This document shows, in pieces, positions 13,015 through 16,677 of a DNA stretch of 64,000 nucleotides. The notes below the pieces were generated by a model. It had not been told where the DNA came from and searched no databases. It was given only the letters and a program-made list of their open reading frames with translations. Origin of the DNA: an uncultured Actinomycetota bacterium (GTDB taxonomy: Bacteria > Actinomycetota > Actinomycetes > Mycobacteriales > Mycobacteriaceae). Location of the stretch: positions 192,053 through 256,052 of the forward strand of contig CAWDSB010000008.1 of the NCBI GenBank assembly GCA_963804905.1, in the 5' to 3' direction. The stretch's first letter is position 1; each line of letters opens with the position of its first letter. A program made the translations under genes and the position numbers.

Positions 13015-13848
13015 ATGGCTCGCTCCGACGTCCTGGTCTCGACCGACTGGGCCGAGAGCAATCTCGATGCGCCCAACACCGTCTTCGTCGAGGTCGACGA
13101 GGACACGTCCGCATACGACGGCGGACACATCGCCGGCGCGGTCAAGCTGGACTGGAAGACCGACCTGCAGGACCCGGTCAAGCGCGATTTCGTTGACGCG
13201 CAGCAGTTCTCAAAGCTGCTGTCCGACCGTGGCATCAGTAACGACGACACGGTGATCCTCTACGGCGGCAACAACAACTGGTTCGCCGCATACGCGTACT
13301 GGTACTTCAAGCTCTACGGCCACGACAAGGTCAAGCTGCTCGACGGCGGCCGCAAGAAGTGGGAGCTCGACGGCAGGTCGCTGTCTGCCGACACGGTGAG
13401 CCGGCCTGCGACCAGCTACACCGCCAAGCAGCCGGATAACACCATCCGGGCGTTCCGCGACGAAGTCATCGCCGCGATCGGTGAGAAGAACCTGGTCGAC
13501 GTGCGCTCGCCCGACGAGTTCTCCGGCAAGATCCTGGCTCCCGCCCACCTGCCACAGGAGCAGAGCCAGCGGCCCGGGCATATCCCCAGCGCCATCAACG
13601 TTCCGTGGAGCAAGGCGGCCAACGAGGACGGCACCTTCAAGTCCGACGAGGCGCTGGCCACGCTATATGCCGACGCAGGGCTCGACGGCGAGAAGGAGAC
13701 CATCGCGTACTGCCGGATCGGTGAGCGCTCATCGCACACCTGGTTCGTGCTGCAGGAGATTCTCGGTCACAAGAACGTCAAGAACTACGACGGCAGTTGG
13801 ACGGAATACGGCTCCCTGGTGGGTGCCCCGATTGAGTTGGGAAGTTGA
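13015..13848 (+). CDS. Thiosulfate sulfurtransferase (tandem rhodanese, CysA/SseA type)
   Basis: 277 aa. Active-site loop CRIGERSSHTW. Rv0815c-like. Confidence 0.85.
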   Translation: MARSDVLVSTDWAESNLDAPNTVFVEVDEDTSAYDGGHIAGAVKLDWKTDLQDPVKRDFVDAQQFSKLLSDRGISNDDTVILYGGNNNWFAAYAYWYFKLYGHDKVKLLDGGRKKWELDGRSLSADTVSRPATSYTAKQPDNTIRAFRDEVIAAIGEKNLVDVRSPDEFSGKILAPAHLPQEQSQRPGHIPSAINVPWSKAANEDGTFKSDEALATLYADAGLDGEKETIAYCRIGERSSHTWFVLQEILGHKNVKNYDGSWTEYGSLVGAPIELGS

Positions 13849-14362: not shown

Positions 14363-15019
14363 GTGACCTCTGATCAAGGCCCCGTCGCCGGGCGTTCGGG
14401 CGACCAGGCGGTCGCCGCCGCGGCCGAACGGGCCAAGACGACGGCCGCGCGCAATATCCCGGTGTTCCCAGATCTTCCGGCACCTGCCGACACCGCAAAC
14501 CTGCGCGAAGGCGTCAACCTGAGCGATTCCCTGCTCGCGCTGCTGCCGCTGGTGGGAGTGTGGCGCGGCGAAGGTGAGGGGCGCGCAGCGAAGGGCGATT
14601 ACCGGTTCGGTCAGCAGATCGTGGTGTCCCACGACGGCGGCGACTATCTGATCTGGGAAGCGCGGTCGTGGCGGCTGACCGAATCCGGTGACTACGAGGA
14701 GCACGGCCTACGGGAGTCGGGGTTCTGGCGGTTCGTCAACGACCCGAACGACCCGACCGAGTCCCAGGCGATCGAATTGCTGTTGGCCCATTCCGCGGGC
14801 TATGTCGAGCTGTTCTACGGACAGCCGCTAAACCAGTCGTCGTGGGAACTGGTCACCGACGCGTTGGCCCGCAGCAAGTCCGGGATGCTCGTCGGTGGCG
14901 CGAAACGGTTGTACGGCATTGTCGAGGGGGGCGATTTGGCTTACGTCGAGGAGCGCGTCGACGCCGACGGCGGACTTGTCCCGCATCTGTCGGCCCGGCT
15001 GACGAGGTTTGTCGGCTGA
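14363..15019 (+). CDS. Nitrobindin/FABP-like DUF1794 protein (Rv0813c-like)
   Basis: 218-aa ORF with the conserved GVWRGEGEG…GDYRFGQ beta-barrel motif. GTG start overlaps the stop of a 33-codon hydrophobic ORF. Confidence 0.7.
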
Positions 15020-15276
15020 TGCGAAAGATGCGGTGGGCCACGGTGATCGCCGTGGCGCTGATAGTCGCGGGATGTTCGTCGAAGGGGGCGCCGCCAGAGC
15101 AATCGTCGACGCCGGCGCCGAGCGATCACGGCGCGTATGCCAAATGTCTTCAAGATCACGGTGTTTCGGCTCCGCCGGGACCCGTCGCCGGACCACCGCC
15201 TGGCACCGACCAGGGCGCCTGGCATCAGGCGACGGAGGCCTGCGCGTCACTGGCGCCCGGGCCGTCGGCCGGCTAG
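15019..15276 (+). CDS. Small putative lipoprotein
   Basis: [21 protein letters not shown]: signal peptide with lipobox LVAGC. Pro/Gly-rich mature part. ATG overlaps the upstream stop. Confidence 0.45.
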   Translation: MRKMRWATVIAVALIVAGCSSKGAPPEQSSTPAPSDHGAYAKCLQDHGVSAPPGPVAGPPPGTDQGAWHQATEACASLAPGPSAG

Positions 15277-15400
15277 GCCAGAACGGGCGCCTTCCCCACC
15301 TCAACGAGGCGCTTCTTCCGCGCCAGCACGATCACCGACCACGAACAGTGACGTGGCCCAGATATGGGTCGGCCCCCGAGCCGCTGTTCCTTGGTTGGAC

Positions 15401-15423
15401 AAAAACCGAGGGGCTCGGGGGCC
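15401..15423 (-). terminator. Rho-independent-type terminator on the minus strand, nested inside a 12-bp-stem hairpin (15371-15423)
   Basis: ccgag-ggg-ctcgg stem-loop followed on the minus strand by TTTTT. Outer arms ggcccccgagcc / ggctcgggggcc. Confidence 0.4.
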
Positions 15424-15792
15424 GGGTGACTGCGGGGAATTCGCCAGCGCGCGCAGGTGATCCCCTGGCGCTGCTAGCTCGCAGCCACCTCACATGTCCA
15501 TAAGTCAATCAATTTGTCGGACCACCTCCTTCCCTGTGTACGAGCGAGGTTATCACTGACTCTGAAGGGGCCGGTAGCGATTTATCACCGGTGTGGTGCG
15601 GTTGCAGGCCGGCCCTTTACGGGTCGCGCTCAGCCGGCCGGGCAGACCTCCTGGCCCTCACAGGTACCGCCGAATTCGGCGTCGACGCCTGGTCCTCGGC
15701 CTGGGCTGGCCGGAGCCGCGGGGCAGGTGGCGCTGGGTTGGCGCCCGGCGCACCTGGTTGCCCGACGCCTGTATTCGTCGGTCGTTACGTTG

Positions 15793-16677
15793 TCAGCGAT
15801 CGCTCACGATGGCGGCGTCTACGAGCTCGGACAGTTCTGCGGCCATCGGTGCGGGTCGCAGCGGCTTGCCGTCGAGGGTGTGCACCCGGGCCGCCAGCGT
15901 GATGCTCGATACCAGCCAAACACCTTGGGCAGCAATGAGATCAGTGGTCCGCAGTGCCCGATAGTCGCAGTCGTAGCCCTTGTTGCGTGCCACCTCGAAC
16001 AGGGCCTGCTGAGTGGTGCCGCGCAGGATGGGATACCACGGCGGCGGGGTGAGCAGCCCGAGCCTGCCGTCCATTTCCGTGGCGATCACCACCGTCGACC
16101 GCGGACCCTCCAGGACATAACCGTCGGAGCTGACGAAGATCACGTCGCCTGCGCCGTGACGCTCGGCGTGACGCAGCGCCGCCATGTTCACCGCGTAGGA
16201 CAGCGTCTTGGCGCCGGCCAACAGCCACGGCGTGTCGTCGGCACCGGCGGCGGGCAGGCCGCGGGCAAGCGTCAGCGCGGCGACCCCGTCCCTGCGGGCC
16301 GCGGCCACCCTGTCGGGCACTGCGCCGATCATCGCGAACCCCGTCGGGGGTGATCCGCTTTCGCGTCCCCGGCTGTAGATCAGCCGCAGCACTCCCTCTT
16401 GGCCCCCCTGGTCGGTCCAGCTCGCCGTCGCGGTGGCGACCGCTGCACGCCACCGCTCCAGGTCGGGTGCGGGTAGATCCATCAGCCGCGCCGATTGCGT
16501 CAACCGACCCAGGTGGGCCTCGAGCAGGCACGGGCGCCCGTCGCGCACCAGAAGCGAATCGAAGATCCCGTCGCCGCGCACCACGGCCAGATCGTCGGCG
16601 TGCAGGAGTGGTGTCTGCGGATCCTGCAACTGCCCGTCGAGCGTGACCACAATCCCCGGTTCGCCCGCCATGGCCAA
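15793..16677 (-). CDS. Class IV aminotransferase / aminodeoxychorismate lyase (PabC-like, Rv0812-like)
   Basis: 294 aa. Fold-type IV PLP enzyme motifs. Synteny with Rv0811c-like neighbour. Confidence 0.8.
   Translation of the reverse strand: MAMAGEPGIVVTLDGQLQDPQTPLLHADDLAVVRGDGIFDSLLVRDGRPCLLEAHLGRLTQSARLMDLPAPDLERWRAAVATATASWTDQGGQEGVLRLIYSRGRESGSPPTGFAMIGAVPDRVAAARRDGVAALTLARGLPAAGADDTPWLLAGAKTLSYAVNMAALRHAERHGAGDVIFVSSDGYVLEGPRSTVVIATEMDGRLGLLTPPPWYPILRGTTQQALFEVARNKGYDCDYRALRTTDLIAAQGVWLVSSITLAARVHTLDGKPLRPAPMAAELSELVDAAIVSDR

Follow-up and report, generated by a model that had tools for sequence, protein, structure and literature searches.

The 516-bp stretch between a small lipoprotein-like open reading frame (ORF) and a pabC-like gene (positions 15277-15792) very probably contains an ortholog of the actinobacterial small RNA (sRNA) Ms_IGR-5, and the evidence strongly supports that the rest of the stretch consists of a promoter and unconserved spacer. 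The window, by which we mean the whole 64,000-nt stretch of DNA that was analysed, is high-GC actinobacterial DNA. An earlier note on its sequence had suspected an independent minus-strand small RNA here and had proposed an Rfam search as a check. This search returned a single significant match, to RF02471 (Ms_IGR-5, "Actinobacteria sRNA"), running on the minus strand from 15539 to 15364 over 176 nt, with 177.4 bits against a gathering score of 45, an E value of 5e-43 and coverage of model positions 1-184 of 184 without truncation. It is the sole gathering-level Rfam match in the whole 64-kb window; the other matches (HBV epsilon, Actino-ugpB, Clostridiales-2) fell far under their gathering scores, with E >1. 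The suspected RNA is thus a full-length member of the family, preceded by a conserved promoter of its own, and its strand and approximate 5' region had been correctly recognized. The Shine-Dalgarno (SD)-like motif, both micro-ORFs and the long hairpin that had drawn attention to the site all lie within the 176-nt match.

Ms_IGR-5 was reportedly first described in Mycobacterium smegmatis by Li et al. in 2013 (RNA 19:74), and Rfam classes the family as 'Gene; sRNA'. RNA-seq-validated Rfam matches of the family exist in Streptomyces lividans and S. avermitilis (PMC8079986, PMC8780764), and significant ribosome footprints are reported on the MS_IGR-5 homologs of M. abscessus and M. smegmatis (PMC4974804). 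A discrete small transcript is predicted in the window from the conserved promoter and from this published RNA-seq and Ribo-seq detection in other species, which lend it indirect support. The family is conserved from mycobacteria to Streptomyces, yet no function is reported in the literature searched, where we found passing mentions only and no functional study. The element is already catalogued in Rfam, its novelty is therefore low, and an Rfam search alone would annotate it automatically; the unexplained biology is that of the whole family and not of the window. Concrete hypotheses can be drawn from its exceptionally long complement to the anti-SD sequence, from a reading frame preserved through indels and from a long-range helix, backed by covariation, that a translating ribosome would open.

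Locus and flanking genes

The stretch and its neighbours are organized as follows, the two ends of the RNA being inferred from the boundaries of the Rfam model.

14363-15019, nitrobindin-like gene (PF08768)
15019-15276, plus strand, small ORF of 85 aa with a lipoprotein-like N-terminus (…LIVAGCSS…), without Pfam match
15277-15363, 87-nt spacer between the stop of the convergent lipoprotein-like ORF and the 3' end of the sRNA, without detected feature
15364-15539, minus strand, Ms_IGR-5 family small RNA, with 5' end ACACAGGG at 15539 and 3' end 6 nt past the terminal hairpin
15547-15555, minus strand, -10 element TAACCT (15552-15547) with an extended -10 TGn motif (TGA, 15555-15553), 7 nt upstream of the RNA 5' end
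15571-15584, minus strand, weak -35-like hexamer (TACCGG/CTACCG) with a conserved A-rich AAATCG box just upstream
15591-15792, species-specific non-coding spacer of about 200 nt, from the pabC stop to the sRNA promoter
15793-16677, minus strand, class IV aminotransferase gene, pabC-like (PF01063)

No coding signal was detected in 15277-15792, where the three codon phases differ little in GC content (0.67/0.71/0.68 in 15540-15792), as opposed to the strong periodicity of the flanking genes; the statement of the earlier note that no plausible protein is encoded here therefore holds. A protein gene in the gap is ruled out by this flat profile together with the lack of conservation of 15591-15792, and the long plus-strand ORFs of the gap are antisense, running into pabC. 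Weak similarity to the spacer 15277-15363 was seen in a few close relatives, confined to the first ~50 nt beside the ORF stop codon. The start codon of the 85-aa ORF overlaps the stop of the nitrobindin-like gene (TGATG), and its conservation at the DNA level is limited to a subset of the related loci.

Homologs and synteny

A pattern scan of one genome per species gave at least 119 related loci in Mycobacterium, Mycolicibacterium, Rhodococcus, Williamsia and a few metagenome-assembled genomes (MAGs) labelled otherwise, including slow-growing mycobacteria such as M. gastri, M. triplex and M. colombiense. The pattern imposed the motifs GGAAGGA, AAATTGA, GGACA and GTGAGG, and the invariance of the last three in the homolog set is therefore not independent evidence. 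Six divergent homologs re-checked against RF02471 all scored above the gathering score, at 86-150 bits.

Within these loci, the RNA is convergent with the nitrobindin-like gene in all informative cases, including those of Rhodococcus and Williamsia, and a same-strand gene directly downstream of the RNA was found neither in the window nor in any of the at least 119 related loci. Both the window and some of its close relatives have the lipoprotein-like ORF placed between the RNA and the nitrobindin-like gene. The end of pabC is 50-70 nt away from GGAAGGA in most mycobacteria, with ~45-60 nt left before the RNA; in Rhodococcus and Williamsia, pabC is not adjacent to the RNA. The window differs from its relatives by the ~200 extra bases (15591-15792) that separate pabC from the RNA, for which a search of the at least 119 related loci and of the rest of the window gave no similarity. 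The gap from the pabC stop to the promoter is below 20 nt in most relatives and 0.8-2.6 kb in a few; the site looks like an insertion or a variable hotspot.

Promoter and independent transcription

When 116 distinct upstream sequences were anchored on the first base of the RNA, a TANNNT -10 box located 7 nt before the 5' end was found to be nearly universal, with T-13 kept in 114, A-12 in 114 and T-8 in 115 of them. G-14 is kept in 113 of the 116, and the window carries TGn in place of this usual G; its hexamer TAACCT is unique in the set. In most homologs, AAATCG is followed by TTGTCG, TTGCCG or TTGGCA ~17 nt before the -10 box, and the -35 hexamer of the window is degenerate. A generic sigma-70 scan, which demanded at least 4 of 6 matches to each of TTGACA and TATAAT and 9 of 12 overall, found no promoter here, the site falling short of this threshold. 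The conservation strongly supports a SigA-type promoter belonging to the RNA itself, for which the window would use the extended -10 TGA-TAACCT. Because the -10 box is present whatever the upstream gene, the RNA is better regarded as an independent transcription unit than as a part of the pabC 3' UTR.

The direct repeat GTGATAA pointed out in the earlier note does exist, a few bases away from the reported place, with copies of the heptamer (TTATCAC) at 15550-15556 and 15582-15588. Its candidacy as an operator was rejected, since its copies share bases with the extended -10 and the AAATCG box, and none of the other 115 upstream sequences contains it; it is not seen in other species, and we read it as a chance match between the extended -10 and the A-rich box that precedes the -35.

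Secondary structure and the 3' end

Combining RNAalifold with explicit counting of pairs on an alignment of 117 sequences, we found a conserved fold in which 93% of cells are paired, against 32-42% when the partners are slid by 1-3 columns. Compensatory (double) changes occur in 22 pairs, and none of 500 shuffles reached the observed values. These data strongly support the following order: a single-stranded 5' segment, P1, P2 enclosing P3 and a linker, and finally P4/P5. The elements of the RNA, all on the minus strand, are the following.

15519-15534, GGGAAGGAGGUGGUCC, extended Shine-Dalgarno-like 5' segment, complement of the 16S tail
15496-15522, P1 hairpin (RNAalifold consensus), GUCC (15522-15519) with GGAC (15499-15496), UUG start codon in the loop
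15474-15512, short ORF (sORF) of 12 codons with UUG start (M/L-IDLWTCEVAAS) and stop UAG, 12 nt after GGAGG
15425-15489, P2 long-range helix, GGUGGCUGCG (15489-15480) with CGCAGUCACC (15434-15425), enclosing P3 and the linker
about 15478-15444, P3, variable hairpin inside P2
15443-15435, unpaired C-rich linker CGAAUUCCC inside P2
15370-15424, P4/P5, terminal GC-rich hairpin with UGUCC (15401-15397) in its loop, presumed 3'-end structure
15401-15418, 5-bp hairpin CCGAG-CCC-CUCGG followed by UUUUU (pattern scan), an alternative, non-conserved fold inside P4/P5

P1 is paired in 99% of cells, with one-sided changes only. P2, formed by GGUGGCUGC(G) with (C)GCAGUCACC (columns 55-64 and 165-174 of alignment A1), shows compensatory changes in 4 of its 10 pairs, for instance GC in 95 and AU in 18 sequences at one pair, or GC in 62, CG in 20 and UA in 4 at another. 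The Rfam consensus of Ms_IGR-5 draws the first helix differently, as gGugGu with gCugCc, and our comparative data support P2 instead. The linker has a mean unpaired probability of 0.77 over the 117 homologs (RNA positions 97-105), rising to ~0.9 per base for GAAUUCCC (98-105).

The arms of P4/P5 (15370-15385 and 15409-15424) are 16 nt long and 94% complementary; the hairpin is paired in 97% of cells and has a predicted energy of -37.7 kcal/mol. In Williamsia and in the divergent copy on contig L023 the stem sequences are other and the pairing is maintained. The UGUCC of the P5 loop is strongly conserved, its G, U and first C being invariant and the second C present in at least 90% of the 117 homologs. 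It is perfectly complementary to the invariant GGACA (15495-15499) just past the P1 loop, which is also able to pair locally with GUCC at 15519-15522; UGUCC and GGACA may form a pseudoknot or a switch, about which covariation gives no signal as neither side varies.

The earlier note had described a 12-bp-stem hairpin at 15371-15423 with a 5-bp terminator nested inside it, ending the transcript near 15400. Both hairpins are present: the long one has the more extended 16-nt arms given above, and the small one, at 15418-15401, is not nested in it, its CCGAG (15418-15414) belonging to the 5' arm of P4, so that the two are mutually exclusive. We do not regard the small hairpin as an intrinsic terminator: its 5-bp stem is weak (-4.8 kcal/mol) and competes with P4/P5 at -37.7 kcal/mol, its U5 run is part of the P5 loop, and a U-run of at least four occurs there in 26 of the 117 homologs, thus mostly lacking conservation. 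Because the hairpin is weak and its U-run unconserved, we place the 3' end not at about 15400 but at the model boundary, ~15364, to which the conserved structure also extends; going by the model, the RNA probably ends just past P4/P5. The upper length of 400 nt envisaged previously does not hold either, 15591-15792 being unconserved spacer. No U-tract follows the P4 hairpin in the window, and the 3' end could therefore arise by processing or Rho. A minor shorter isoform is conceivable in the window species.

Complementarity of the 5' end to 16S rRNA

The near-perfect SD sequence announced on the minus strand is present, at 15521-15533 rather than at 15516-15528. This 13-mer, GGAAGGAGGTGGT, occurs exactly once in the window; a 13-mer with at most two mismatches is not rare, 1.33 being expected. 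For the 16S 3' tail we used GGAUCACCUCCUUUCU, which we take from general knowledge of actinobacterial rRNA. With this assumed tail, the extended segment GGGAAGGAGGUGGUCC forms 16 contiguous pairs (13 Watson-Crick and 3 G-U) with a predicted energy of -29.3 kcal/mol, ranking first among 127,960 20-nt windows taken on both strands, for which the next value is -22.7, the mean -6.0 and the standard deviation 2.8. Across the 117 homologs, G7-G17 are invariant and positions 18-20 nearly so, GGAAGGA being the only part of this run that the search pattern had fixed. On average, the SD segment is unpaired with a probability of 0.45. Engagement of ribosomes by the 5' end of the RNA is likely; with an SD of this kind, the footprints may come from ribosomes that bind but do not translate.

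The second-strongest predicted complement of the tail, GGGGGTGATCC at 16339-16358 on the plus strand (-22.7 kcal/mol), lies antisense inside pabC and is probably due to chance in GC-rich DNA.

The short open reading frame

The TTG ORF noticed 12 nt past the SD was recovered at 15512-15474, with 12 sense codons and TAG. It is open in 122 of 122 homologs, has 11-13 codons and ends with TAG or TAA at a fixed position of the alignment. Indels inside the ORF are of -3 or +3 only, with a variable stretch of 6, 9 or 12 nt that reflects two independent events; the spacer from GGAGG to UUG, on the other hand, varies by single nucleotides (10, 11, 12 or 13 nt, with 12 nt in 105 of the 122). The UUG has a mean unpaired probability of 0.79. 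We also scanned metagenomes with a pattern that forbade T at the first base of the start codon, and the only variants found under it were on two contigs of one Rhodococcus-like lineage, both with GUG (sRNA copies at L120 4891-5102 and L121 1298-1510). That the frame is kept translatable is favoured by a rough combined p of about 0.03-0.06, an estimate based on 0 in-frame stops versus about 2.8 expected from column frequencies and on the two 3n indels, and only suggestive.

The SD, the start codon and the ORF are maintained across species, as is expected of a dual-function sRNA, the start context being partly imposed by the search pattern. Signs of purifying selection on the peptide were not seen, variation affecting all codon positions without concentration at the third. 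Residues 2-5 vary freely and the N-terminal half is unconserved at the amino-acid level, while the conserved C-terminal part (T-C-E-V-A-A) coincides with RNA elements, namely GGACA and a strand of P2; these patterns suggest that the peptide itself is probably not the functional product. In M. smegmatis genes, AGGAGG is centred 9-10 nt upstream of the starts (PMC4633059). For the UUG of the sORF, the centre of the AGGAGG core lies about 15 nt before the codon, and initiation there may be inefficient because this spacing exceeds the mycobacterial norm.

The 3-codon ATG ORF mentioned nearby is also present, at 15501-15490 on the minus strand (ATG-GAC-ATG-TGA). It was discarded, as Rhodococcus, Williamsia and several mycobacteria lack its start codon and have CGG, AGG or UUG in place of AUG.

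Possible modes of action

We tentatively propose a translation-coupled mechanism, to which we give somewhat less than an even chance. The invariant 5' segment GGAAGGAGGUGGUC would recruit the 30S subunit through its unusually long pairing with the 16S 3' tail, the 12-codon UUG sORF would then be translated, and the ribosome on it would occupy or unwind the 5' strand of P2, freeing the 3' strand and the linker. Translation would thus reshape the RNA and alter how available its linker is. In a more general form, Ms_IGR-5 would be a ribosome-engaging riboregulator instead of a plain base-pairing sRNA, catching the small subunit with its invariant 14-16-nt complement of the 16S 3' tail, and would act either as a translation-sensing sRNA, switched when translation of the sORF melts P2, or as an RNA whose sequestration of the anti-SD biases the choice between leadered and leaderless translation, leaderless mRNAs being abundant in actinobacteria; this broader view we consider doubtful.

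The RNA could also act as a conventional base-pairing sRNA, in which the linker CGAAUUCCCCGCAG or the G-rich 5' end pairs with target mRNAs and the SD and ORF are by-products of constraints acting on the RNA. This reading, quite possible if clearly short of an even chance, agrees with the status of the linker as the most accessible conserved segment (0.77 mean unpaired), with substitutions in the sORF that follow no coding pattern, with the overlap of its conserved half with P1 and P2, with an SD-to-start spacing above the mycobacterial norm and with the Rfam class 'Gene; sRNA'. It leaves unexplained, however, why indels are multiples of three inside the ORF and of any length before it, why GUG is the only variant at the start position, and why ribosome footprints have been reported on the RNA (PMC4974804).

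A ribosome decoy, whose 14-16-nt anti-anti-SD would hold 30S or 70S particles by their 16S tail with no productive translation ensuing, and so titrate or mark ribosomes, for example shifting the balance of leadered versus leaderless mRNAs, seems improbable to us. The duplex with the 16S tail, far stronger than that of any other site in the 64 kb, the invariance of the motif well beyond a normal SD core, the sub-optimal distance to the start codon and the footprints reported on the RNA would all suit such a decoy, but the proposal is purely inferential, the SD segment has a mean unpaired probability of only 0.45, and the preserved reading frame would lack an explanation. What is left of the probability falls to other mechanisms.

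It is very improbable that the structured region is the 3' UTR of pabC, which the earlier note had also envisaged, and that the sRNA is no more than a fragment processed from the pabC mRNA or the site where this mRNA terminates. The RNA does lie on the strand of pabC, no terminator-like site was found from the pabC stop to 15540, and most mycobacteria have only about 45-60 nt between the end of pabC and the RNA. A reading as 3' UTR only nevertheless fails because of the conservation of the promoter: the -10 box hardly varies, keeps a fixed distance to the RNA 5' end and is retained in Rhodococcus and Williamsia, whose RNA has no pabC beside it, and in the relatives with a gap of 0.8-2.6 kb. 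In the window, moreover, the distance from pabC to the RNA is 253 nt, of which about 200 are unconserved. Finally, a leader-peptide attenuator, also raised previously, in which the sORF and alternative hairpins (the 5-bp terminator versus the long hairpin) control a downstream gene, would fit the succession of an sORF and mutually exclusive hairpins, one of them with U5 in the window, but can practically be dismissed because of the gene arrangement, the next genes being convergent in the window and in all informative loci with no minus-strand gene downstream; besides, the small hairpin is worth only -4.8 kcal/mol, most homologs lack its U-run, and no amino acid is encoded by a series of consecutive codons in the sORF.

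Comparison with known RNAs

The window copy shares with Ms_IGR-5 (RF02471) the full-length model match, the 5' ACACA-GGAAGGAGG motif, the terminal hairpin and an intergenic actinobacterial location. It differs in nothing essential, its peculiarities being the unique -10 hexamer with TGn, the degenerate -35 and the ~200 extra bases between pabC and the promoter.

Dual-function sRNAs that encode peptides include SR1/SR1P in Bacillus, RNAIII/delta-hemolysin in Staphylococcus and SgrS/SgrT in enterobacteria. Like them, the RNA described here is a structured stand-alone sRNA that has an SD and a start codon for a short ORF, open across species, whereas its peptide is poorly conserved, has 11-13 residues and comes from putative translation; what counts may be that the sORF is translated, and not which peptide results.

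C-rich loops are a feature of 6C RNA and of other actinobacterial sRNAs. Both 6C RNA and Ms_IGR-5 are conserved across Actinobacteria, including Streptomyces, and have an unpaired C-rich segment that could pair with purine-rich ribosome-binding sites. In contrast, the fold of Ms_IGR-5 is another one, and it adds a G-rich anti-anti-SD 5' end, whose polarity is opposite to that of the 6C loops.

Additional observations

A poly-cysteine leader was looked for upstream of the cysA-like gene at 13015 in the window, and none was seen. The linkage of the RNA to the nitrobindin-like gene persists in Rhodococcus and Williamsia, and in several slow-growing mycobacteria (loci L008, L011, L021, L022, L042 and L062) this gene ends only ~0-25 nt from the 3' end of the sRNA; there, the GC-rich terminal hairpin could serve both transcripts, or their 3' ends could overlap in antisense. 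Copies of Ms_IGR-5 are also carried by two contigs binned as Micrococcales, L118 (labelled Mycetocola MAG) and L023 (labelled Pseudactinotalea MAG). The former hardly differs from one of the Rhodococcus copies (L063), which points to mis-binning; the latter is divergent and, among the matches listed, is the only copy seen with a clear U-tract past the terminal hairpin.
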